64,000 nt of DNA from Candidatus Binataceae bacterium (GCA_035500095.1 DATJXN010000089.1:370-64369), one strand, 5' to 3'. Positions 1,848 to 47,967 are shown, counted from the stretch's first letter. The notes: generated from the letters alone by a model not told the origin. Made by a program: numbers and translations.

Positions 1848-3449
1848 CTAGTGCGCGGCGGAGGGGCCGGCGGCGCGGTGGCCTCTGCGCAAGAGCAAGA
1901 AGCCCGGTATCATCAGCGCCATGACCGTCGCAAGTATGCGATAGATGTCGTTAAAGGAGAGGATCGCGGCCTGCGCCTGGATCGCGTTGTAGATCACGCC
2001 GAAGCCCTGATGCTGTCCGGTTATCATCTGCGGCAGGTAATGGAAGGTCGGTGCGCCCGGCATGCGCGGCCCGCTCTCGCTGAGCTTCCAGGCGTCGAAG
2101 ACCGAGAGATGCTCGGTCAGGCGCGACTGGTGGATCTGCTCGTGATCGACCAGCATCGTGGTCATGTAGGCGATTCCGATCGCGGCGCCGGTGTTGCGCA
2201 TCATGTTGTAGAGGCTCGCGGCGTAGCCGATCTTCTCGCGCGCCACGACCGCGAGCGAACTCGCCGAGAGCGTGGGAAAGATCATGCCCATGCCGAGACC
2301 CATCACGATGCTCGGGATGACGACGACCCACAGGCTGACCTCGAGATCCCAGCCTGACATCGTCCAGAGCCCGATCGTCATCAGCACGAATCCGATTCCG
2401 ACCAGCGGGCGGGTGTCGAAGCCGCGGCGCGCAATCTGTCCGATCACGATCATCGATAACATTGTCGCGAGTCCTCGCGGCGCCAGCACCAATCCGGCCT
2501 TCCATGCGGTGTAGCCCATCAGCTCCTGCAGGAAGATCGGCATGAGCAGGCCGGTGCCGTAGAGCACCGAGCTCATCGCGACGATCAGCACCAGTCCGAC
2601 GCTGAAAACTTTGATCCTGAGGATCCGCAAATCGAGGATCGGGTCGGAGATGCGCAATTCGTTGATCGCGAGGACCGCCATCGCGGCCGCGCTCAGCAGG
2701 CTGGTCCAGACCACCCAGGACGAAGCGAACCAGTCGGCCCGCTGGCCGCGGTCGAGCACGATCTGCATCGCGCCGAGCCCAACCACCAGGCAGGCGATCC
2801 CCAGGTAATCGACCTTGCCGCCGCGCGCGCGATGCTGGCGCAGGAAGGGCGGATCGTGCACGAACGCCGAGACCATCAGGAAGGCGACGATTCCGATCGG
2901 CACGTTGATGTAGAAATTCCATCGCCAGTTCCAGTTGTCGGTGATCCAGCCGCCGAGCGTCGGCCCCATGATCGGCGCGACCATCAGGCCCACGCCCCAC
3001 GTCGCCATCGCGAGCTGCTGCTCGGCCGGCGGAAAGGTTTCCATCAGGATGGCCTGCGACGACGGCACCATCGCGGCGCCTGCGGCGCCCTGTATGAGGC
3101 GGAAAATTACCATCTGATCGAGCGAGGCCGCGGCGCCGCACAGTGCCGAAGCGACCACGAAGACCGAGACCGAAATCATGAAGTAGCGTTTGCGGCCGAA
3201 GCGCGACGAGATCCATCCGGTCATCGGGATCATGATGCCGTTGGCGACCAGGTAGCTGGTCAGCACCCATGCGATTTCGTCGACGCTGGCGGAGAAGCTG
3301 CCCTGCATATGCGGCAGCGAAACGTTGACGATCGAGGTGTCGAGCACCTCGAGCGTGGTGCCGAGCATCACGGCGAGCGCAACCAGCCACTTGTGGGAGG
3401 ACGCGGCCGACTCGGCGTGCGCGGCGCCGCTCTGAACTGCGGCTTCCAT
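1848..3449 (-). CDS. DHA2-family MFS efflux transporter (EmrB/QacA type)
   Basis: Motifs: LEVLDTSIVNVSLPHMQGSF, MTGWISSRFGRKRYF, GGWITDNWNWRWNFYINVPIG. Long multi-TM protein of 533 aa. Confidence 0.9.
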   Translation of the reverse strand: MEAAVQSGAAHAESAASSHKWLVALAVMLGTTLEVLDTSIVNVSLPHMQGSFSASVDEIAWVLTSYLVANGIMIPMTGWISSRFGRKRYFMISVSVFVVASALCGAAASLDQMVIFRLIQGAAGAAMVPSSQAILMETFPPAEQQLAMATWGVGLMVAPIMGPTLGGWITDNWNWRWNFYINVPIGIVAFLMVSAFVHDPPFLRQHRARGGKVDYLGIACLVVGLGAMQIVLDRGQRADWFASSWVVWTSLLSAAAMAVLAINELRISDPILDLRILRIKVFSVGLVLIVAMSSVLYGTGLLMPIFLQELMGYTAWKAGLVLAPRGLATMLSMIVIGQIARRGFDTRPLVGIGFVLMTIGLWTMSGWDLEVSLWVVVIPSIVMGLGMGMIFPTLSASSLAVVAREKIGYAASLYNMMRNTGAAIGIAYMTTMLVDHEQIHQSRLTEHLSVFDAWKLSESGPRMPGAPTFHYLPQMITGQHQGFGVIYNAIQAQAAILSFNDIYRILATVMALMIPGFLLLRRGHRAAGPSAAH

Positions 3450-3458
3450 CGGGCGGCG

Positions 3459-5102
3459 CTACTCGGCGTGCGCGGCCATTACCTGAGATTCGATCTCAGC
3501 CTGGAGCGGAGAATTGCCGCGCGCCGGCGCGGCCTGCCCGCGCCTTAGGCAGAGAAACATCGGGACCATCGCGAGCATCAGCGCCGCCAGGATCCTGTAA
3601 AGATCATCGAACGACAGAATCGAGGATTGCGCGGTCACCATTGCGTACATTCTGCCGAGGCCCTGTTTCTGGCCCGAGATCAACTGACCGAGGAAATCGA
3701 ACTGCGGACTGCCCGGCATCGACGCGCCTCGCTCGCCCAGGCGCCACGCTTCGAACACCGACAGATGTTCGACCAGCCGCGACTGATGCACCTGCTCATA
3801 GTTTACCAGCATGTTGGTGAGATACGAGATGCCCATCGCGGCCCCGGTGTTGCGCATCAGGTTGAACAGGCTCGCCGCGTCGCCCATCCTTTCGCGCTTG
3901 ATGCCCGAGAACCCCACCGCCGCGAGCACCGGAAACAAAATCCCAAGCCCGCTGCCCAGCATCACGCTGTCGAGCGCGACGACTCGCGCGCTGACGTCGA
4001 GGTTCCATTGCGCCATCCACCAAAGCCCGATCGCCGAAAACAGGAATCCCACTCCGATCATTGGGCGCGTATCGACCCGCAGCCGCGCCAACTGCCCCAC
4101 CGCGAACATCGAGAACATCGCGGCCATCGCTCGCGGCACCATCATCAAGCCCGCGCGCCACGCCGTATATCCCATCAGCTCCTGCAAAAAGACCGGCATG
4201 AGCAGGCCCGTACCCCACAGCGTCGCGCTCAGCACCACCATCAGAAAAACCGACACCGAAAAGACACGGTCCTTGAGAATCCGCAGATCGACGATCGGAT
4301 GGGCAACCTTCAGTTCGTTGATCACCAGGGTCGCAAACGCGAGCGCCGCGCCCCCCGTCGCCATCACCACCCAGTTCGAGGCAAACCAGTCTGCGCGCTG
4401 TCCGCGGTCGAGCACGATCTGCGCGAGGCCGAGGCCGACCACCAGGCAGGCGATGCCGACGTAGTCCACGCGCCCGCCGCTTTTGCGGCGCTGGCGCAGA
4501 TAGGGCGGGTCATACACGAACGCATAGACCATCGCGAGGGCGACGATTCCGATCGGTATGTTGATGAAAAAGTTCCAGCGCCAGTTCCAGTTGTCGGTAA
4601 TCCAGCCGCCGAGCGTCGGCCCCATGATCGGCGCGATCATCAGCCCCACGCCCCACGTCGCCATCGCCATCTGCTGCTCCTCGGGTGCGAAGGTCTCCAT
4701 CAGGATCGCCTGCGAGGAGGGCAGCATCGCGGCGCCCGCGGCGCCCTGCATAAGCCGGAACAGCACCATCTGTCCGAGCGAGCCTGCAGCACCGCATGCC
4801 GCCGACGCCGCCACGAAGGTCCCGACCGAGGTCATGAAATAGCGCTTGCGGCCAAAACGCGCGGAAATCCATCCGGTCATCGGAATCATGATGCCGTTGG
4901 CGGCGAGGTAACTGGTGACTACCCAGGCGATTTCGTCCACGCTGGCCGAGAAGCTGCCCTGCATGTGCGGCAGCGAGACGTTGACGATCGAGGTGTCAAG
5001 CACTTCGAGCACGGTGCCGAGCATCACCGCGAGCGCGACGAGCCACTTGTGCGTAGCGATCGGATGCTCTTCGGCAGCGGAATTCGAGATGGCGCCGGCC
5101 AC
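3459..5102 (-). CDS. DHA2-family MFS efflux transporter (EmrB/QacA type), tandem paralog
   Basis: Same motifs as 1848..3449. Roughly 70-75% identical by eye, and higher in the N-terminal half. Lies 9 nt upstream of the paralog. Confidence 0.9.
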   Translation of the reverse strand: MAGAISNSAAEEHPIATHKWLVALAVMLGTVLEVLDTSIVNVSLPHMQGSFSASVDEIAWVVTSYLAANGIMIPMTGWISARFGRKRYFMTSVGTFVAASAACGAAGSLGQMVLFRLMQGAAGAAMLPSSQAILMETFAPEEQQMAMATWGVGLMIAPIMGPTLGGWITDNWNWRWNFFINIPIGIVALAMVYAFVYDPPYLRQRRKSGGRVDYVGIACLVVGLGLAQIVLDRGQRADWFASNWVVMATGGAALAFATLVINELKVAHPIVDLRILKDRVFSVSVFLMVVLSATLWGTGLLMPVFLQELMGYTAWRAGLMMVPRAMAAMFSMFAVGQLARLRVDTRPMIGVGFLFSAIGLWWMAQWNLDVSARVVALDSVMLGSGLGILFPVLAAVGFSGIKRERMGDAASLFNLMRNTGAAMGISYLTNMLVNYEQVHQSRLVEHLSVFEAWRLGERGASMPGSPQFDFLGQLISGQKQGLGRMYAMVTAQSSILSFDDLYRILAALMLAMVPMFLCLRRGQAAPARGNSPLQAEIESQVMAAHAE

Positions 5103-5385
5103 GCAGGGATTACCCGGGCGAAAGCCGTATCCGGCGGGCTGGGCTACGCGCTGAAGAGATTACGGCGGCGCCGATGTTGTCGTCCGATTTGCCCATCGAC
5201 AGCCCAGCCCTCCGCGACTGTGCTCCCCCAAGCGCCACAACTATGCCCCAGGAGGACATCGATTGAAAAGGCGCGCCGGCTCGCCGCGCGCTTTCCACAG
5301 CCTGCTTGCGACGCGCCGCGCGGCCTGTGAAGCGATCAGGTTTGGCTATGGTGACAATCGTTCCAACGCGGCATAGCCTTTGATT

Positions 5386-7122
5386 ATGCGCTTGGCCGCC
5401 ATTGATGTCGGTTCCAACTCGGTGCACATGGTGATCGCCGACGTGCGCCGCGACGGCCATTTCGAGGTCATCGACCGGGTCAAGGAGATGGTGCGGCTCG
5501 GCCGCCGTGCGTTCACCAGCGGCAAGCTCGCGCGAGAACCGATGGAGCTGGCGGTGCGCGCACTCAAGAATTTCGCGCATCTGGCCAAGGTCCGGCGGGT
5601 CGATCGGATTCGCGCAGTCGCGACCAGCGCAGTGCGCGAGGCACACAACCGTGAAGCCTTTATCGCGCGCATCCGGCGCGAGACCGGCCTTAAAGTTGAA
5701 ATTATCTCGGGCGCCGAGGAGGCGCAGTTCATCTTCAGCGCCGCCCGTCACGCGTTCGGCCTCGAGGGTGGGCCCTACCTGCTGATCGACATCGGCGGCG
5801 GGAGCGTCGAGCTGGTGCTGGTGCGTGACGGCGAAGCGCTATGGATGGAAAGTTTGCCGCTCGGCGTCGCTCGGCTGACCGAGCGCTTTCTCACTTCCGA
5901 TCCGCCCGAACCGGCCGAAGTGCGCAAACTCGAAGAACACCTCCATCGCAAGCTCGACGCGCTGCTGCGCAAGGCGCGCCGGGCCGAGGTGGTGCAGGCG
6001 ATCGGCACGTCGGGGACCATCAATGCGCTGGTCGCGATGGCGCGGGTGGCCCGCGACGGCGAGCAGGACAGGCTGCACGGTCTGAGCATCCCGGCGACCG
6101 ACGTGACCTGGCTGCGCAACCGCCTGCTCAAGCTGTCCGCCGACGAGCGCGCGGAGCTGCCAGGCGCCGACCCCAAGCGCGCCGACCTGATACCGGCGGC
6201 AGCGGTACTGACGGACTTTGTGCTGGAACACGCGGCCGCGCCCGAACTCGTCGCATGCACCTGGGCGCTGCGCGAAGGCATCCTGCTGAGCATGGTGAAG
6301 GCGGGCGCGCGCGGACGCCGCACGATCGAGGCGCGGCGGCGCTCGGTGAGCGCGCTGGCCCGGCGCTTCGGCGCGCTCAACGGGCACGGGCCCCAGGTTG
6401 CACGCCTCGCGTTAAAGATTTTCGACGCGGCCGCGCCGCTGCTCAAGGCGGGCCCGCAGTCGCGCGAGCTGCTGGAACACGCGGCGCTGCTTCACGACAT
6501 CGGACGCGTCATCGACCACGACCGCCACAATCGGCACACCTATTACCTGGTCAAGAACGCCGAGCTTTTGGGCTTCGATCCGCTCGAGATCGAAATCATC
6601 GCGCAGGCAGCGCGCGGTCATCGCAAGCCTTCGGCCCGTCTCGACTCGCCGGAGTTCCGCTCACTCAATCCGGCAAAACGCTATTTGGTCCGTTCGATCG
6701 CGGCGATCCTGCGGTTGGCCGATGCGCTGGACCGAAGTCACTTCAGTGTGGTTAAAGATATAACCATCAGACGTTCGCCGGACCGCTTCACCATCACAGT
6801 CGATGCCGCAGATGGACGGGCAGACCTTGAGCTATGGACGTGCGAGAGAAGATCGGACCTGCTGTCGAGGCTGCTGAACCGTCAGGTAACGGTCAAACGG
6901 CGGAAGCACCGGCAAAAGGTTCGATCGCCGCGCGCCCGGCGGTCCACGGTTCGGCCCAAGCGAGCGCGGCGGGCTGTGGTTCGATCGAAGCAGGCGCGAG
7001 GACGAACGGCTCCTCCGAAGCGGGCAATGGCGCGGCGCGCACGGCCGGCAATGGTCCGATCGAAGCCGGCGCGGGGACGAACGGCTCGGCCGAGACGGGC
7101 GACGGCGCGGCGCGGACGCTAA
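5386..7122 (+). CDS. ppx: Exopolyphosphatase / guanosine pentaphosphate phosphohydrolase family (Ppx/GppA) with HD domain and a 74-aa Arg/Lys-rich C-terminal tail
   Basis: Motifs: MRLAAIDVGSNSVHMVIADV, LLIDIGGGSVELV, AIGTSGTINAL, HD region LLHDIGRVIDHDRHNRHTYYLV. ATG 5386 (alternative TTG 5380). The frame stays open to 7122. Confidence 0.9.
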   Translation: MRLAAIDVGSNSVHMVIADVRRDGHFEVIDRVKEMVRLGRRAFTSGKLAREPMELAVRALKNFAHLAKVRRVDRIRAVATSAVREAHNREAFIARIRRETGLKVEIISGAEEAQFIFSAARHAFGLEGGPYLLIDIGGGSVELVLVRDGEALWMESLPLGVARLTERFLTSDPPEPAEVRKLEEHLHRKLDALLRKARRAEVVQAIGTSGTINALVAMARVARDGEQDRLHGLSIPATDVTWLRNRLLKLSADERAELPGADPKRADLIPAAAVLTDFVLEHAAAPELVACTWALREGILLSMVKAGARGRRTIEARRRSVSALARRFGALNGHGPQVARLALKIFDAAAPLLKAGPQSRELLEHAALLHDIGRVIDHDRHNRHTYYLVKNAELLGFDPLEIEIIAQAARGHRKPSARLDSPEFRSLNPAKRYLVRSIAAILRLADALDRSHFSVVKDITIRRSPDRFTITVDAADGRADLELWTCERRSDLLSRLLNRQVTVKRRKHRQKVRSPRARRSTVRPKRARRAVVRSKQARGRTAPPKRAMARRARPAMVRSKPARGRTARPRRATARRGR

Positions 7123-7844
7123 GGGCTCATCGCCACACCCTGCTGAGCTCGCCCCATCCCTACCCGGGACGCCTCATCGCGGTCGAAGGAATCGACGGCT
7201 CGGGAAAATCGACTCAACTGAAACTTCTGGAGCGATGGCTGCGGGCGCGCGGTTACCCGGTGTACTTCACCGAGTGGAACTCTTCGCGCCTGGTGCGCAA
7301 CTCGATGCGCCGCGGCAAGCGGCGCAATCTGCTCACGCCGAGCACGTTCAGCCTGCTACACGCGGTCGACTTTGCCGACCGCTTCATCTACCAGATTCTC
7401 CCGCCGCTGCGCGCCGGGATGATCGTGCTCGCCGATCGCTACGTTTATACCGCGTTCGCGCGCGACGTCGCGCGCGGCGTGCATCCCGATTGGGTACGCA
7501 GCGTTTATCGCTTCGCGCCGCGCCCCGATCTTACGTTCTTTTTCCGCGTGCCGATCGACGTTTCGCTCGAGCGCCTGCTGGCCGGCCGCGCCAAGCTCAA
7601 GTATTACGAGGCCGGGATGGATCTCGGGCTGTCGACCGATCTCGCGGAAAGCTTCCGCCTTTTTCAGGGACGCGTGCTGGAGAACTATGACCGGCTGGCC
7701 GAGGAATTCGACCTCCGGGTCATCGACGCCAATCACGACATCGCCGGCCAACAGAAGGTCGTGCGGCGGATGACCGGGGAAATCCTGCGCGAATACGACG
7801 AGCAGCGCGCACGCGTCCATCATGGCAACTCGCATGGCCATTAG
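6834..7844 (+). CDS. Thymidylate-kinase-like P-loop kinase, paralog 1 (intact Walker A); start uncertain
   Basis: Motifs: GRLIAVEGIDGSGKSTQLKLL, LLHAVDFADRF, VLADRYVYTAFAR. The only ATG/GTG/TTG in frame before the P-loop (about 7188) are 6834 and 6840, which overlap ppx by 289 nt. Confidence 0.75.
   Translation: MDVREKIGPAVEAAEPSGNGQTAEAPAKGSIAARPAVHGSAQASAAGCGSIEAGARTNGSSEAGNGAARTAGNGPIEAGAGTNGSAETGDGAARTLRAHRHTLLSSPHPYPGRLIAVEGIDGSGKSTQLKLLERWLRARGYPVYFTEWNSSRLVRNSMRRGKRRNLLTPSTFSLLHAVDFADRFIYQILPPLRAGMIVLADRYVYTAFARDVARGVHPDWVRSVYRFAPRPDLTFFFRVPIDVSLERLLAGRAKLKYYEAGMDLGLSTDLAESFRLFQGRVLENYDRLAEEFDLRVIDANHDIAGQQKVVRRMTGEILREYDEQRARVHHGNSHGH
6918..7127. repeat. Tandem repeat, 75-nt unit, about 2.8 copies (6918-6977 partial, 6978-7052, 7053-7127)
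   Basis: GGTTCGATCGAAGCAGGCGCGAGGACGAACGGCTCC... is repeated as GGTCCGATCGAAGCCGGCGCGGGGACGAACGGCTCG.... This encodes GSIEAGARTNGSSEAGNGAARTAGN / GPIEAGAGTNGSAETGDGAARTLRA in one frame and VRSK(Q/P)ARGRTA... in the ppx frame. Confidence 0.85.
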
Positions 7845-8616
7845 ACCATCGCGCGCCAAACGATGGCACGGCCACGGCTTGCCCTATCTCGACGAGAAGC
7901 CGCTGCCCGGCCATCTCATCGTGATCGAAGGCACCGACGGCGTCGGCCGCTCGACCCAGGTCGAGTTGCTGCGCGGATGGCTCGAGCTTGAGGGCCATGC
8001 GGTCAGCAATACCGGATGGACGCGCTCGCCGCTGCTCTCGGCCACGATCGCGGACGCCAAAGCCGGCCATCAGCTCACGCCGATCACCTTCAGCCTGCTC
8101 TACGCCGCCGATTTCGCCGACCGGTTGGAGCACGAGATTCTGCCCGCGCTGCAAGCCGGCTTCGTGGTGATCGCCGACCGCTACATGTACACCGCCTTTG
8201 CGCGCAACGCCGTGATGGGCACCGACCCGGAGTGGACTCACGAAGTCTTCGGGATGGCGCTGGTGCCGGACCTCGTCCTGTATCTGGAAATCGACGTCGA
8301 TACGCTGGTGCCGCGCGTGCTCCGCGGCAAAGGGATGGACTACTGGGAGTCCGGGATGCATCTGGCGCTGTCGAGCGACATCTTCGACTCGTTCCAGAAC
8401 TATCAGCGGCGCATCATCGAGGAGTACCGCCGCCTCGCGCGCGATTTCGGCTTCGTCACCATCGACGCCCGCGAATCGATCAGCAAGATTCAGAGCGAGA
8501 TCCGCGCGCACGTGTCGGATTATCTCCGCCGCGCGCACAACGGCTTCCAGCCGCAAGCTGACGGTCCCTCGCCCGCTCCGTCGGCGCGCCCGCTCGCGCA
8601 GGCGCGCAAGGGCTAG
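7822..8616 (+). CDS. Thymidylate-kinase-like P-loop protein, paralog 2 (Walker-A Lys replaced by Arg)
   Basis: Motifs: GHLIVIEGTDGVGRSTQVELL, LLYAADFADRL, VIADRYMYTAFAR. The start overlaps paralog 1 by 23 nt (alternative ATG 7834). Confidence 0.8.
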   Translation: MATRMAIRPSRAKRWHGHGLPYLDEKPLPGHLIVIEGTDGVGRSTQVELLRGWLELEGHAVSNTGWTRSPLLSATIADAKAGHQLTPITFSLLYAADFADRLEHEILPALQAGFVVIADRYMYTAFARNAVMGTDPEWTHEVFGMALVPDLVLYLEIDVDTLVPRVLRGKGMDYWESGMHLALSSDIFDSFQNYQRRIIEEYRRLARDFGFVTIDARESISKIQSEIRAHVSDYLRRAHNGFQPQADGPSPAPSARPLAQARKG

Positions 8617-8634
8617 TCGGATAGCCCGCGTGTC

Positions 8635-9138
8635 ATGACGCTCTATATTCTGCGCCACGGATCGGCCGAGAACGAACCGCCGGGGGGCGGCGACGACGGC
8701 GCGCGCCGGCTGACCGCCCGCGGCCGAGAAAAAGTGCGCGAAGCGGCGGCCGGGATGCGAGCCTTGGGTATCAAGTTCGACGCGATCCTTTCAAGCCCCC
8801 TGCCGCGCGCCGCTGAAACCGCGGAACTCGTCGCCGCCGCGTACCCGGGCGGACCGGCGCCGGAGACTTGCGCGGCGCTCTCCACCGGAGCGTCGCCAGC
8901 CGAGACCGTCGCCGCGCTCAAGCCCTATGCGCGGCACGACAATCTTGTGCTCGTCGGACACGAACCGGGACTGAGCGGTATCGCTTCGCTGCTGCTGACC
9001 GGGTCGGCCAACAGCGTGAGCTTCGACCTCAAGAAAACGGGAATGATTGCGCTCGACCTTGCCGACGGCATCGAGCGCCGCGGCGCGCGACTGCTGTGGG
9101 TGCTCACGCCGCGCCAGTTACGCCGGATGGGCAAGTAA
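8635..9138 (+). CDS. sixA: Phosphohistidine phosphatase SixA family (histidine phosphatase superfamily)
   Basis: MTLYILRHGSAE (RHG motif) and second catalytic His in LVLVGHEPGL; 167 aa. Confidence 0.85.
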   Translation: MTLYILRHGSAENEPPGGGDDGARRLTARGREKVREAAAGMRALGIKFDAILSSPLPRAAETAELVAAAYPGGPAPETCAALSTGASPAETVAALKPYARHDNLVLVGHEPGLSGIASLLLTGSANSVSFDLKKTGMIALDLADGIERRGARLLWVLTPRQLRRMGK

Positions 9139-9156
9139 CGGCCTTCGCTCCGATAC

Positions 9157-9200
9157 GAAAAAGAAAAAGGCCCGCAGCGGCTTTCGAGCCGTCGCGGGCC
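9157..9200 (-). terminator. Intrinsic terminator of the LLM oxidoreductase gene (hairpin shared with the convergent sixA operon)
   Basis: Hairpin GGCCCGCAGCGGCT-TTCG-AGCCGTCGCGGGCC (9169-9200). On the minus strand it is followed by TTTTTCTTTTT (9157-9168). Confidence 0.7.
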
Positions 9201-9223
9201 TTCGCGATCGCGCGTTCTTTGCG

Positions 9224-10321
9224 TTACGCCGAGGCGCGCAGCGGCTCGAAGCTGTCTTCGCCCCAGCTTCTAACCTCGGGCAGGACCTCCTTGGCAATCA
9301 GCCGCATGCTCGATTCGGCGTCCTTGAACGGCAGGCCGGCGTAGCTCGTACAGACGTTCCATTCGAAATCGCCGATCTTGGCGCGCCGGCGTTCGAGCTT
9401 GTCGAGCAGCTGCTGCGGCGTGCCCCACGCCTGCTCCATCGCGAACGTTTCGGCGGCCTTCTCCAACCCGGTCTCGCGCAGGATCTGGCTCGCGTTGGCG
9501 TAATTCTCGTAGCCCTTGAGCCTGGAGTGATAGTCGTCGTTGAACTCGTAGTGTTTGATCACCGAGAGGTAGTAGCCGGCGATATGGCGGCGGGCCAGCT
9601 CTTCGGCGCGTCCGGCGTCGCGGTCGCAGTAGGTGAAATCGATCGCGAGCGGCGGCGGCGCCGGCCGATGCTGATGCTTGCGGAAGGCCTCGCGATACAT
9701 CTCGATGCCGGGCAGATGCTGTTCGATGCTGAACTGCACGAAGAACATCATGCGGCCGCCGAGCTCGCCCACGATCGGCGCCGAGTCGGGCGACATCGCG
9801 ACACCATACAGGCGTGCGTCAAACGGACGCTCGGGGCGCGGCTTGATCTCGGTGCGCACCTGCTTGTAGTAGCGCCCGTTGCCTTCCATATAGCCCGTGC
9901 GCAGCGCCTCGAGGATCATTTTTGCCGACTCGTTGAAGCGCTCGCGCGATTCATTCATGTCGATATTGAAAATCCGGTACTCCATCCGCGCAAGCCCGCG
10001 CCCCAAGCCCAGGATGAAGCGGCCGTTGCAGAGCGCGTCGAGCATCGAGACTTTCTCGGCTACCCGCAGAGGATCGTTCCACGGCAGAATCACGGCCGCA
10101 GTGCCGAGATGGATTTTGCTGGTGCGCCCAGCCAGGTAGGTGAGCACCTGGAAATTGTCGGGCAGCTCGGAATAGGAGTCGAAGTGATGCTCGGCGCTCC
10201 AGATGGTGTCGAAGCCGAGCGGCTCCGCAAGCTCCGCGATTCGCATCTCCTGACGCACCATCTCGGCGTCCGATAGCCCCTGATGCGCGTTCTGGAACAG
10301 CAGCATGTACCCGGTTCTCAT
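9224..10321 (-). CDS. LLM-class (luciferase-like) flavin-dependent oxidoreductase
   Basis: Motifs: FDTIWSAEHHF, LGTAAVILPWNDPLRVAEKVSMLDALCNGRFILGLGRG; 365 aa. Confidence 0.85.
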   Translation of the reverse strand: MRTGYMLLFQNAHQGLSDAEMVRQEMRIAELAEPLGFDTIWSAEHHFDSYSELPDNFQVLTYLAGRTSKIHLGTAAVILPWNDPLRVAEKVSMLDALCNGRFILGLGRGLARMEYRIFNIDMNESRERFNESAKMILEALRTGYMEGNGRYYKQVRTEIKPRPERPFDARLYGVAMSPDSAPIVGELGGRMMFFVQFSIEQHLPGIEMYREAFRKHQHRPAPPPLAIDFTYCDRDAGRAEELARRHIAGYYLSVIKHYEFNDDYHSRLKGYENYANASQILRETGLEKAAETFAMEQAWGTPQQLLDKLERRRAKIGDFEWNVCTSYAGLPFKDAESSMRLIAKEVLPEVRSWGEDSFEPLRASA

Positions 10322-44570: not shown

Positions 44571-45386
44571 ATGATTGTCGGAATCGATATTGGCGGATCG
44601 ACCACTGACGCGGTGACGGTCGACAACGGCGACTACCACGTCGTTACGATCGAGGCCAACGATCCGGTCGCGGCAGCGGCCGGCGCGCTCGGCAAGCTGG
44701 TCGAGGTGTACGGACTCAAGCTCGACCAGGTGGCGTGCGTGGCGGCGACGGGAGCGGGTTCGCGCGCGCTCTCGGCAACGCTGCTCGGGCGCCCGGTGGT
44801 CAAGGTCAGCGAGTTCACCGCGATCGGAATCGGCGGAACGTCGCTCTGCGGCAAGGCCGACGCGCTGGTGGTATCGCTGGGGACCGGGACCGCGATGGTT
44901 TCCGTGCACGGCGACAAAATCGAGCACTCCGGCGGCACCGGTCTTGGTGGCGGCACGCTGCGCGGGCTCTCCAAGCACATGCTCGGCGTCTCGACCCTGC
45001 AGACGCTGGAGGCGCTGGCCGAGCGGGGCGATCTGAGCCGCATCGATCTCACCGTGCGCGACATCGCGGGCGGCCCGCTCGGCGACCTGCAGCCCGGCGC
45101 CACCGCGGCCAACTTCGGCAAGATCAGCGCGGATGCGACCAACGAGGACAAGGCGCTCGCGATCATGAACATGATCGTCGAGGTGGTGAGCGTGCTGAGC
45201 TTCGCGACCGCGCGCGCCTGCGACCAGCGCGATATCGTGCTTACCGGCAAGCTGACCCGGGTTTTCCGGTTCATGCAGCGGCAGAGGCGGATGGATGCGC
45301 TGCTCTCGCACTTCACGATTCCCGATCATGCGGATTACGCAACCGCGATCGGCGCGGCGCGCGCCGCCGCCGGCCCGATCCGCTGA
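44571..45386 (+). CDS. Type II pantothenate kinase-like protein (CoaW/Fumble family, ASKHA fold)
   Basis: By eye it is collinear with S. aureus CoaW. MIVGIDIGGSTTD, SLGTGTAMV, GGTGLGGGTLRGL and IDLTVRDIAGG...GDL..TAANFG align with VGIDAGGT, NVGTGTS, GGIGTGGGMIQGL and IDLKVRHIY...GDLTAANFG. Confidence 0.6.
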   Translation: MIVGIDIGGSTTDAVTVDNGDYHVVTIEANDPVAAAAGALGKLVEVYGLKLDQVACVAATGAGSRALSATLLGRPVVKVSEFTAIGIGGTSLCGKADALVVSLGTGTAMVSVHGDKIEHSGGTGLGGGTLRGLSKHMLGVSTLQTLEALAERGDLSRIDLTVRDIAGGPLGDLQPGATAANFGKISADATNEDKALAIMNMIVEVVSVLSFATARACDQRDIVLTGKLTRVFRFMQRQRRMDALLSHFTIPDHADYATAIGAARAAAGPIR

Positions 45387-45448
45387 GCCGCCGGCCGCGG
45401 CGCGCATCCAGTCCGCGCGTGACCGCTTTTCCCGCAACAGGAGTATCG

Positions 45449-46711
45449 ATGAGCTCGGAGCTGCTCAGCGGATTCAGGATGCTCGACCTCGCCGACGAAA
45501 AGGGCGCGCTCTGCGGCAAGATCTTCGCCGACATGGGTGCCGACGTGATCAAGGTCGAGCCGCCCAGGGGATGCCCAACGCGGCGCATCCCGCCTTTTCT
45601 CGACGACCTGCCGGACTCCAACCGCGGCCTCTATTTCATCGCCTACCAGGCCGGCAAGCGCTCGGCCACGCTCAACCTGGACTCGCCCGACGGCCGCGCG
45701 CTGCTGGAAGATCTGGTGCGCAAATCCGACTTCCTGCTCGAATCGTTTCCGGTCGGCTACCTCGAGTCAATCGGACTTGGTTACGAGCGTCTTTCGGAGT
45801 TCAATCCGCGGATCATCCATACTTCCATAACGCCCTTCGGCGACACCGGTCCGGGCCGCAACTACAAGGCCGCCGATATCGTCTCGTGGGCGTCGGGCGG
45901 CCCAATGTTCCTGATGGGCGACGAGGGCCGGCCGCCGCTCGAGATGGCGCTGCCGCAGGCCGGGCTGCACGCGGGCGCCGAGGCCGCAGTCGCGTCGCTG
46001 CTCGCGCACTATCCGCGCGAAATCGAAGGCCGGGGCCAGCACGTCACCATCGACATGCAGGCCTGCGTGCTGTGGACCCTGATGAACGAGCAGGCGATGC
46101 CGATACTGCACGGCGATTACATCAAGCGCACCGGGATGTACTACACCGCAACCGGCACGCGGCGGCGACTCGTGTATGCATGCAAGGACGGCTACATCTC
46201 GACCGTGCTCGCCGGCGGCCCCGGCGTCGGCGCAGTCTCGATGAAGGCGCTGGCCGAGTGGATGGCGGTCGCCGGGTTCGCCGCTGACTGGATGATCGCA
46301 AAGGATTGGAGGGCCTGGGTGCCGGGGATCCTGATGAAAGCGACCGCGCAGGACAACCAGGAGATCGCGGATCTCGAAGAGCGCGTGCAGCGCTTCTTCA
46401 ATACCCTCACCAAGCGCGAGATCTACGCCGAGGCGATCAAACGCCGCATCCTGCTCGCCCCCGTGGCGACCACCGCCGACATTGCCGACGACGAGCAACT
46501 GAAGGCGCGCAACTATTTCGTGCGCCTCGAGCACGACACACTCGGCCGCACGCTCACGCTGCCGGGCGCGTTCGCCAAGTTCAGCGGGACGCCGGTCGGA
46601 CCGGCACGCCGCGCGCCGCGCCTCGGCGAGCACAACGGAGAAGTCTTCGGCGAGCTACTGGGAATCGACGGCGCACGGATGAGTCGTCTGCGCGCGATCG
46701 GCGCGATCTGA
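45449..46711 (+). CDS. Family III CoA-transferase (CaiB/BaiF type), subunit/paralog 1
   Basis: Motifs: FRMLDLADEKGALCGKIFADMGADVIKVEPP, LESFPVGYLESIGLGY, RAPRLGEHNGEVF. Internal ATG of track ORF 44735..46711. Confidence 0.85.
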   Translation: MSSELLSGFRMLDLADEKGALCGKIFADMGADVIKVEPPRGCPTRRIPPFLDDLPDSNRGLYFIAYQAGKRSATLNLDSPDGRALLEDLVRKSDFLLESFPVGYLESIGLGYERLSEFNPRIIHTSITPFGDTGPGRNYKAADIVSWASGGPMFLMGDEGRPPLEMALPQAGLHAGAEAAVASLLAHYPREIEGRGQHVTIDMQACVLWTLMNEQAMPILHGDYIKRTGMYYTATGTRRRLVYACKDGYISTVLAGGPGVGAVSMKALAEWMAVAGFAADWMIAKDWRAWVPGILMKATAQDNQEIADLEERVQRFFNTLTKREIYAEAIKRRILLAPVATTADIADDEQLKARNYFVRLEHDTLGRTLTLPGAFAKFSGTPVGPARRAPRLGEHNGEVFGELLGIDGARMSRLRAIGAI

Positions 46712-46746
46712 TCGCGACGCCAGGCCGAGGGAATGGAGCAGTCAGG

Positions 46747-47967
46747 ATGAGACGTTACGCGCTCGAGGGAGTTCACGTCCTCGATTTTTCCTGGGTCGGG
46801 GTCGGCCCGATTACGACCAAGTATCTCGCCGACAATGGCGCCGACGTTATCCGGATCGAGTCGCTGGCGCGGCCCGATATCCTGCGCCTCGCGCCGCCGT
46901 GGAAAGATGCGAAACCAGGGATCGACACGAGCCAGTTTTTCGCGAGCTTCAACACCTCGAAACGGAGCATCACGCTGGACCTCGGCAAACCAAAGGCGCG
47001 CGAGCTGGTGCTGAAGCTGCTGCCCTGGGCCGATATCGTGGCCGAAAGCTTTACCCCCAAGGCGCTGCGCAAATGGGAGCTCGACTACGAGCATCTGCGC
47101 ACGCTCAAGCCCGACCTGATCATGCTTTCGACCTGCATGCAGGGGCAGACCGGGCCTAACGCGCTTTACCCGGGGTTCGGACAGTTGATGGCGGCGCTCA
47201 GCGGCTTCTACCATATCGCCGGCTACGGGCCCGGCGAGCCGCCCTGCCCGCCCTACGGCGCATACACGGATTTCATCGCTCCGCGCCTTTCAGCCTGCGC
47301 GCTGCTCGCTGCGCTCGACTATCGCCGCCGCACCGGCCGCGGACAGTATATCGACATGTCGCAATACGAGGCCGCGCTGCACAATCTCGCCCCGGCGCTG
47401 ATCGATTACTTCGCGAGCGGCCGCGTCGCCGGCCCGGCGGGCAATCGCTCCGAGCGCTATGCGCCGCATGGCGCCTATCGATGCGCCGACCTCGACGGCC
47501 ATGAGCGATGGCTCGCGCTGGCGGTGGAAACCGAAGAGGAGTGGTGCGCGATGCTCGCGGTGCTCGGCAATCCGCCGGCCGATTCTCTCTTCGCGACGAT
47601 GGCAGCGCGGATGGAAAATCGCGCGGCCCTCGATCAGTTCGTCGGCGCGCTGGTCCGCGAGCGCGACGCCGATCAGCTCACGGCGGCGCTGCAGGCGGCG
47701 GGCGTCGCCGCCTACCCGGTGCAGAACTGCGTCGATATCCATCGCGACGACAATCTCGAGGCTTTCGGCTTCTGGCACTGGCTCGATCACAAAGCGATGG
47801 GGCCGTCGCCGTACGAGGGACTCTCGCATCGGTTGAGCCGCACGCCTGGCGAGTTGCGCACGGCGGCGCCGACCCTTGGCCAGCACAACGACGAAGTCTT
47901 CGGCGGACTGCTCGGACTCGGCGCGGACGAGATCGCGCGGCTCAAAGAGCAAAAGGTGATCTTTTGA
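46747..47967 (+). CDS. Family III CoA-transferase (CaiB/BaiF type), subunit/paralog 2
   Basis: Motifs: VHVLDFSWVGVGPITTKYLADNGADVIRIES, AESFTPKALRKWELDY, APTLGQHNDEVF. Confidence 0.85.
   Translation: MRRYALEGVHVLDFSWVGVGPITTKYLADNGADVIRIESLARPDILRLAPPWKDAKPGIDTSQFFASFNTSKRSITLDLGKPKARELVLKLLPWADIVAESFTPKALRKWELDYEHLRTLKPDLIMLSTCMQGQTGPNALYPGFGQLMAALSGFYHIAGYGPGEPPCPPYGAYTDFIAPRLSACALLAALDYRRRTGRGQYIDMSQYEAALHNLAPALIDYFASGRVAGPAGNRSERYAPHGAYRCADLDGHERWLALAVETEEEWCAMLAVLGNPPADSLFATMAARMENRAALDQFVGALVRERDADQLTAALQAAGVAAYPVQNCVDIHRDDNLEAFGFWHWLDHKAMGPSPYEGLSHRLSRTPGELRTAAPTLGQHNDEVFGGLLGLGADEIARLKEQKVIF

Follow-up and report, generated by a model that had tools for sequence, protein, structure and literature searches.

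The 64,000-nt stretch of Candidatus Binataceae DNA analyzed here (GCA_035500095.1 DATJXN010000089.1:370-64369; hereafter the window) carries a tight run of four co-directional genes, which encode a predicted exopolyphosphatase (Ppx), two thymidylate kinase (Tmk)-like paralogs (TmkL1 and TmkL2) and a histidine phosphatase (SixA). Comparison with PPK3, the heteromeric polyphosphate kinase of Sulfolobus, indicates that the locus is very likely a PPK3-type polyphosphate (polyP) module, in which TmkL1 would be the catalytic subunit and TmkL2 the partner subunit, accompanied by Ppx and SixA. The system is a bacterial member of an already described family and not a new kind of system.

Organization of the locus

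The open reading frame (ORF) calls agree with an initial annotation of the window, which had described four packed genes on one strand with the TmkL1 and TmkL2 ORFs overlapping by 23 nt (Table 1). TmkL2 and sixA are spaced by 18 nt. The left flank is formed by two opposite-strand MFS transporter genes ending at 5102, and the right flank by an opposite-strand gene for a luciferase-like monooxygenase (9224-10321). Because the genes on both sides run in the opposite direction, ppx, TmkL1, TmkL2 and sixA constitute a compact four-gene unit. A promoter and terminator scan of 5000-9400 yielded signals at background level only.

Table 1. Coordinates of the genes and sequence features at the locus, numbered from the first nucleotide of the window.
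Feature	Position	Strand	Description
ppx	TTG 5380 or ATG 5386 to 7122	+	ORF; predicted long-form exopolyphosphatase
TmkL1	ATG 6834 to 7844	+	ORF; cPPK3 ortholog, predicted catalytic subunit
TmkL2	7822-8616	+	ORF; predicted rPPK3-type partner subunit
sixA	8635-9138	+	ORF; phosphohistidine-phosphatase-type histidine phosphatase
Arg/Lys-rich C-terminal tail of Ppx	6898-7119	+	ppx frame; overlaps the upstream part of the TmkL1 ORF
75-nt tandem duplication	6977-7118	none	Tandem Repeats Finder score 214, 1.9 copies, 85% match

Translated from ATG 5386, Ppx begins with MRLAAIDVGSNS and contains a Ppx-GppA domain (residues 24–307), an HD-like domain III (residues 319–458) and a C-terminal Arg-rich tail; the Pfam matches are PF02541 (226 bits) and PF21447 (93.5 bits). 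SixA, which begins with MTLYILRHGSAE and bears an RHG motif at residues 7–9, scores 80.8 bits against TIGR00249, above the cutoff of 74.5, and also matches PF00300 in profile searches. Neither Pfam searches of the 44 ORFs of the window nor tblastn revealed a PPK1, a PPK2 or a third Tmk, in line with the earlier remark that the window has no ppk1 or ppk2. A genome with PPK3 would be expected to contain a canonical tmk as a separate gene and, as a rule, to be devoid of ppk1 and ppk2.

Relationship of the kinase pair to PPK3

PPK3 of Sulfolobus acidocaldarius is a heteromeric α2β2 complex of Saci_2019, the catalytic subunit (cPPK3), and Saci_2020, the regulatory subunit (rPPK3) (Hofmann et al., J Biol Chem 2026, PMC12995831; preprint, bioRxiv 10.1101/2024.08.28.610084, 2024). 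The reaction is reversible, with the conversion of ADP and polyP to ATP strongly favored (PMC12995831). Neither protein has dTMP kinase activity, a role that belongs to a third, canonical Tmk, and the operon is arranged in the order sixA-ppx-c-r-CHAD, CHAD being among the proteins typically associated with PPK1/PPK2 (PMC12995831). This is the pair of Tmk-like proteins beside ppx in Sulfolobales to which the initial annotation had referred. In the S. acidocaldarius locus we found sixA-ppx-Saci_2019-Saci_2020 with the two kinase genes overlapping by 22 nt. The window shares this gene set (sixA, ppx, c and r) and an overlap of 22–23 nt between the kinase genes. It differs in having sixA last, which is first in Sulfolobus, in lacking a CHAD gene, in encoding a long-form Ppx with domain III and the Arg-rich tail (580 versus 411 residues) and in belonging to a bacterium (Binataceae).

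TmkL1 is an ortholog of cPPK3 and falls within the PPK3 clade of the dTMP kinase superfamily, apart from the canonical dTMP kinases. It matches PF02223 at 82 bits in Pfam and is 48% identical to Saci_2019. Its best PDB match, at 197 bits compared with 63 bits for the best canonical Tmk, is the cPPK3 homolog ST1543/STK_15430 of Sulfurisphaera tokodaii (2plr/5h70), to which it is 47% identical; the ST1543 entries (2plr, 4nzy, 4rzx, 5h70) were deposited as 'dTMP kinase' and solved without a partner subunit. The AlphaFold2 model of TmkL1, built on 39 homologs, has a predicted local distance difference test score of 93.7. Its top fold matches are eight ST1543 chains, led by 5h70_B with a template modeling (TM) score of 0.94 and a root-mean-square deviation (rmsd) of 1.5 Å, compared with TM scores of ∼0.85 and rmsd values of 2.4–3.7 Å for canonical Tmks.

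To compare the two paralogs with the Sulfolobus subunits, hidden Markov models (HMMs) were built from 69 loci outside Sulfolobus, one for the upstream paralogs (T1) and one for the downstream paralogs (T2). Saci_2019 scored 279 bits with the T1 model and 207 bits with the T2 model, whereas Saci_2020 scored 104 and 149 bits, respectively, a difference of 45 bits in favor of T2. The corresponding scores were 365 and 240 bits for TmkL1 and 260 and 336 bits for TmkL2. TmkL2 and Saci_2020 also have derived residues in common, namely Tyr in place of the His in the FSLxHA motif of cPPK3 and Asp in place of the lid Lys. Together, the HMM preferences and the shared derived residues assign TmkL1 to cPPK3 and support the placement of TmkL2, judged from sequence, in the rPPK3 lineage. 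TmkL2 matches PF02223 at 75 bits, is merely 28% identical to Saci_2020 and again finds ST1543 (2plr) as its best PDB match (152 bits versus 53 for canonical Tmk).

The motifs of TmkL1 are intact. They comprise the EGIDGSGKSTQ P-loop (Walker A GIDGSGKST), WNSS, ADRYVYTAFAR with the DRY form of the DRX motif, and the YYEAGMD lid segment; P-loop, WNSS, DRY and lid are all conserved with Saci_2019, and the lid of ST1543 reads KIKPQEAGAD where TmkL1 has KLKYYEAGMD. The Walker A Lys, the DRX Arg and the lid (LERLLAGRAKLKYYEAGMD) are likewise intact in 74 of 75 T1-type relatives. With regard to the conserved, positively charged polyP cleft expected of cPPK3, nine basic residues (K23, K60, R81, R100, R108, R112, R145, K154 and R209) are invariant among 39 T1-type sequences.

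Gene neighborhoods, defined as the 6 kb around the kinase pair, were compared in GTDB species genomes, where the matches listed include at least 74 PPK3-type loci and 6 canonical tmk loci. Among these matches, T1 is followed by an adjacent, co-directional T2 in 70 of the 74 PPK3-type loci; 44 loci contain ppx, 27 contain sixA and 25 contain both, so that the association of the pair with ppx and sixA, which the initial annotation had proposed to examine, extends across phyla. CHAD (8), ROK (7), PhoU (5) and ABC ATPase (4) are the commonest families among the 130 other flanking ORFs of loci L001-L074, and neither PPK1 nor PPK2 appears among the 25 families listed for flanking ORFs. The ROK family includes the polyphosphate glucokinases. 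In the closest relatives of the window, a CHAD gene lies between T2 and sixA in L082 (7673-8560), L083 (7518-8399) and L085 (7469-8410); it is missing from L084 and from the window, where the 8616-8635 spacer occupies this place.

Natural fusions support a physical and functional coupling of the two subunits and, indirectly, a putative α2β2 hetero-oligomer. A 460-residue protein of Alicyclobacillaceae (P0121) joins a cPPK3-like and an rPPK3-like domain in a single T1-T2 chain, and in three further proteins (P0132, P0143 and P0183) two Tmk-like domains are followed by an HD-like Ppx-GppA domain III.

A different type of fusion contains a partnerless cPPK3-like domain (with WNSS, DRY and YYEAGLD) joined to an APH/DUF2252 kinase-like domain, often with an N-terminal MFS transporter (P0215, P0225, P0181, P0228, P0253 and P0266, as well as P0165 from Elusimicrobiota). 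One of these, P0215, is a transcript of the protist Ancoracysta twista (EukProt) with an SPX phosphate-sensor domain at its N-terminus; a homolog search from it found Elusimicrobiota proteins as nearest relatives and no further eukaryotes.

The PPK2 profile PF03976 matched neither TmkL1 nor TmkL2 at E ≤ 0.1, and the sole PPK2-like trace was an 11-bit P-loop match to TIGR03708. The profile comparisons suggested in the initial annotation thus link both proteins to PF02223 and, through the T1/T2 HMMs, to the Sulfolobus pair, and neither to PF03976. The pair would resemble the two-domain class II PPK2 (for example, P. aeruginosa PA3455) in combining an active P-loop kinase unit with a degenerate paralogous unit for oligomerization and activation, and the Sulfolobus PPK3 reaction, like that of class II PPK2, favors polyP-driven nucleotide phosphorylation (discussed in PMC12995831). 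By contrast, PPK2 of the PA3455 type belongs to another P-loop kinase family, is a fused polypeptide instead of two separate ones and phosphorylates AMP rather than ADP.

In the module that we propose, Ppx, which would be transcribed first, would degrade polyP from the chain end. TmkL1, a P-loop kinase of the dTMP kinase fold whose thymidylate pocket appears to be lost, would transfer phosphate reversibly between ATP/ADP and the end of the polyP chain. TmkL2, presumably coupled to TmkL1 in translation via the 23-nt overlap, most likely forms a hetero-oligomer with TmkL1 and thereby activates it, and SixA probably has a regulatory role. We infer the enzyme activity, the oligomer and the roles of TmkL2 and SixA from the observed homology, orthology, fold, motif states and synteny. 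Two points weigh against this interpretation. In the literature found, the only PPK3 to have been assayed is that of Sulfolobus, and function is carried over between proteins that share 48% (TmkL1) and 28% (TmkL2) identity. Furthermore, TmkL2 does not have the defect of Saci_2020; it keeps the DRX Arg and several invariant basic residues, so that it may have retained ligand binding or even activity. The initial annotation had anticipated a bacterial counterpart of PPK3 with a catalytic and a degenerate subunit, and this description holds at the sequence level, given the clade membership, the synteny and the degenerate P-loop of TmkL2.

Bacterial PPK3 operons near PPX, SixA and CHAD have already been predicted (PMC12995831), and the gain made here is incremental. 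It consists of the Walker A Arg signature of the partner subunit described below, the bacterial breadth of the family and a corrected start and overlap of TmkL1. The definition of PPK3 goes back to a single archaeal enzyme, and bacterial occurrences have been described as rare, a picture that the present locus and its relatives alter. The matches listed cover at least 12 bacterial phyla and include Acidobacteriota, Verrucomicrobiota, Chloroflexota/Dehalococcoidia, Nitrospirota, Planctomycetota, Bacteroidota, Binatia, Thermodesulfobacteriota, Armatimonadota, Sumerlaeota, Eisenbacteria and Gastranaerophilales; the archaea among them are Nitrososphaerales/Nitrosopumilales, Thermoplasmata, Methanoliparum and Marine Group II. 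A representative library holds 338 clusters (50% identity) that match TmkL1 at E ≤ 1e-30. The bacterial spread of the clade looks clearly broader than the 'a few bacteria' given in the abstract of the Sulfolobus study, the Results of which call the clade predominantly bacterial (PMC12995831). Among uncultured bacteria of soils and sediments (Acidobacteriota, Verrucomicrobiota, Chloroflexota, Nitrospirota, Planctomycetota and Binatia), the two-gene unit is common. Since the PPK3 pair is annotated publicly as 'dTMP kinase', surveys confined to ppk1 and ppk2 could underestimate polyP cycling in these groups. A literature search on PPK3 yielded the Sulfolobus study alone and no bacterial enzyme that had been assayed; for Binatota in combination with polyphosphate, no relevant paper turned up.

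The partner subunit, Ppx and the thymidylate site

The P-loop of TmkL2, EGTDGVGRSTQ, has Arg in place of the Walker A Lys (GTDGVGRST), and its ADRYMYTAFAR motif keeps DRY. FSLLYA shows the His-to-Tyr change, and Asp takes the place of the lid Lys. The Walker A Arg (EGxDGxGR[ST]) is present in all 68 T2-type proteins, bacterial as well as archaeal, and the DR of the DRX motif is retained in 66 of them, including those of the archaeal Nitrososphaerales and Thermoplasmata. R43, R68, R120, R128, R132, R165 and E176-G178-D180 are near-invariant in T2-type proteins, which lack three T1-invariant features, namely WNSS, K60 of GKK and lid K154 (Asp in T2). Saci_2020 differs at both sites; its P-loop (EGIMSSGKTT) keeps the Lys and its DRX motif (ADGY) has lost the Arg. 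The replacement of the DRX Arg, to which the inactivity of rPPK3 was attributed (PMC12995831), is not found in TmkL2 (ADRY). The expectation of a degenerate second subunit is therefore borne out for the P-loop of the second paralog, but the lesion is not that of Sulfolobus rPPK3. This combination of a Walker A Arg with a kept DRX Arg, the reverse of the state in Sulfolobus rPPK3, appears to be new, and the invariant Arg offers a specific handle on the regulation of the complex.

Walker A Lys-to-Arg changes in other P-loop enzymes generally abolish phosphotransfer. TmkL2 is for this reason probably devoid of phosphotransferase activity. A less likely alternative is that TmkL2 is not a dead scaffold but a functional ligand-binding or catalytic subunit, whose Arg-type P-loop, DRY and lid arginines would bind nucleotide (for energy-charge sensing) or polyP, or would confer a second activity, for example with a different nucleotide substrate. 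The constancy of the Walker A Arg and of DR, together with the near-invariant basic positions, argues for selection on an active-site-like binding site, and Saci_2020, the one rPPK3 with demonstrated inactivity, has another lesion (GK kept, DGY) at only 28% identity. This alternative has to be set against the usual effect of the Lys-to-Arg change, the loss of WNSS, K60 and lid K154, and the orthology of TmkL2 with the inactive Saci_2020, which the HMM test supports. We hold it to be doubtful and favor TmkL2 as an activating partner without phosphotransfer of its own, the site of which seems to be under selection and may bind nucleotide or polyP.

It is conceivable, although we would not presume it, that in the main PPK3 branch (bacteria, Nitrososphaerales and Thermoplasmata) the second subunit is a conserved ligand-binding module rather than the gutted scaffold seen in Sulfolobus. 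The invariant Walker A Arg, the retained DRX Arg and the lid arginines may be the signature of such a module. If this is true, the second subunit could respond to the adenylate energy charge or keep the polyP chain in place, and regulation of the exchange between polyP and ATP would depart from the published model.

A further explanation does without polyP. The pair might be a nucleotide kinase module in which, for instance, the 'Ppx' is a pppGpp phosphohydrolase of the GppA type and the kinases act on guanine or other nucleotides. Ppx and GppA form one Pfam family, and in NCBIfam the window protein scores 292 bits against the exopolyphosphatase model TIGR03706, slightly under its cutoff of 307. 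Against the GppA equivalog it reaches only 184 bits with a cutoff of 624. The neighbors of the pair in relatives are polyP- or phosphate-related (CHAD, PhoU and ROK), and use of polyP has been shown for the Sulfolobus ortholog (PMC12995831). We consider this explanation very improbable and retain the PPK3-type module.

TmkL1 and TmkL2 share with canonical Tmk (TIGR00041/PF02223; for example, T. thermophilus 5x7j and A. aeolicus 2pbr) the fold, the P-loop, the DRX motif and the lid architecture. They differ from it in identity (at most ∼30%), in the replacement of dTMP-contacting residues and in genomic context, and score below the dTMP kinase equivalog cutoff of TIGR00041 (NCBIfam, 83.25 bits), albeit slightly (TmkL1, 82.6 bits; TmkL2, 82.3 bits). 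The comparison of the dTMP site covered two positions, the thymine-stacking Phe and the Arg that follows it. The Phe is replaced by His in T1 (94%) and by Tyr in T2 (97%), and the Arg, which contacts the dTMP phosphate, is Phe in PPK3-type proteins in alignments with T. thermophilus Tmk and the canonical loci. The P-loop, (V/M)YTAFAR-type and lid motifs quoted in the initial annotation are all present, with the lid segments reading KLKYYEAGMDLGLS in TmkL1 and GMDYWESGMHLALS in TmkL2. The alignment agrees with the remark in the initial annotation that this lid segment was not familiar from canonical dTMP kinases. The form E-[AS]-G-x-D is 95–100% conserved in 75 T1-type and 68 T2-type relatives and absent from the three canonical Tmks of the same alignment; by this alignment, it is a signature of the family. 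That the pair represents two redundant or specialized genuine dTMP kinases, as the PF02223 matches and the public 'dTMP kinase' labels would have it, is scarcely credible in view of the scores below the equivalog cutoff, the replaced stacking Phe and phosphate-binding Arg, the location beside ppx and sixA rather than replication genes, and the lack of dTMP kinase activity of the Sulfolobus orthologs, next to which a third, canonical Tmk exists (PMC12995831). Here too the initial annotation, which had argued against two redundant dTMP kinases, was right so far as sequence can tell, both proteins falling into the PPK3 clade.

Gene boundaries and flanking genes

Read from ATG 6834, the TmkL1 ORF overlaps ppx by 289 nt (6834-7122). 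The TmkL1 frame had initially been described as open from 6756; an in-frame TGA at 6828-6830 limits it to 6831 onward, with ATG 6834 as the first start codon. No other canonical start codon precedes the TmkL1 domain in this frame, which contains no ATG, GTG or TTG from 6840 to the P-loop, and the conserved TmkL1 protein starts near 7140-7167 (LLSSPHPYPGRLIAVEG). For the initial 75 nt of the overlap, substitutions were compared between the window and the close relatives L082, L083 and L084. The ratios of synonymous to nonsynonymous changes were 8/1, 4/2 and 9/4, respectively, in the ppx frame and 1/6, 2/4 and 2/8 in the TmkL1 frame. Synonymous changes predominate in the ppx frame, and the TmkL1 frame is patterned like the unused third frame. 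ATG 6834 itself derives from Leu-Trp codons of ppx (CTATGG) and is missing in the 79%-identical L085 (TTTTGG), in which the gene caller places the TmkL1 start directly after the ppx stop. Selection on the ppx frame only, together with the origin of the ATG and its absence from L085, makes it unlikely that the N-terminal extension is a selected protein segment. The 289-nt overlap is probably a start-codon artifact, and ATG 6834, which would add a 111-residue Ala/Gly-rich extension to the N-terminus, is unlikely to be the true start. TmkL1 may instead begin at a non-canonical codon, CTG 7140 or 7143, coupled to the termination of ppx at 7122.

The Ppx tail comprises 74 residues, of which 33 are Arg or Lys and none is Asp or Glu. 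Relatives have shorter basic tails, and alignment with L082-L085 shows the window to be ∼165 nt longer in this region. The 75-nt tandem duplication extends the Ppx tail and the upstream TmkL1 frame at once, and the Arg-rich 74-residue tail results from this duplication and the ∼165 additional nucleotides. Binding of polyP by the tail is plausible.

In L082, a 1-nt insertion in ppx (∼5850-5970) parts the gene call (485 residues) from the conserved C-terminus. This indel is probably an assembly error and not biology.

The nearest recorded proteins are 96% identical and annotated to metagenome-assembled genomes of Candidatus Binataceae. A Macro-domain gene and the two MFS genes on the left flank are common to the window and its close relatives, and the remaining window genes are of housekeeping type (leuCD, rho, rpsB-tsf-pyrH-frr, ilvNC, leuAB, gyrB and others). 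The Macro-domain ORF (627-1811) encodes 394 residues with the domain at residues 233–342, compared with 174 residues in the relatives' call; the extra N-terminal length probably reflects over-extension of the ORF in this GC-rich sequence. The MFS transporters, which are EmrB-like and encoded on the minus strand at 1848-5102, are a tandem paralog pair. A further tandem paralog pair, of CoA-transferase family III, lies at 44735-47967; its mechanically called ORFs overlap, probably as a result of over-called starts.

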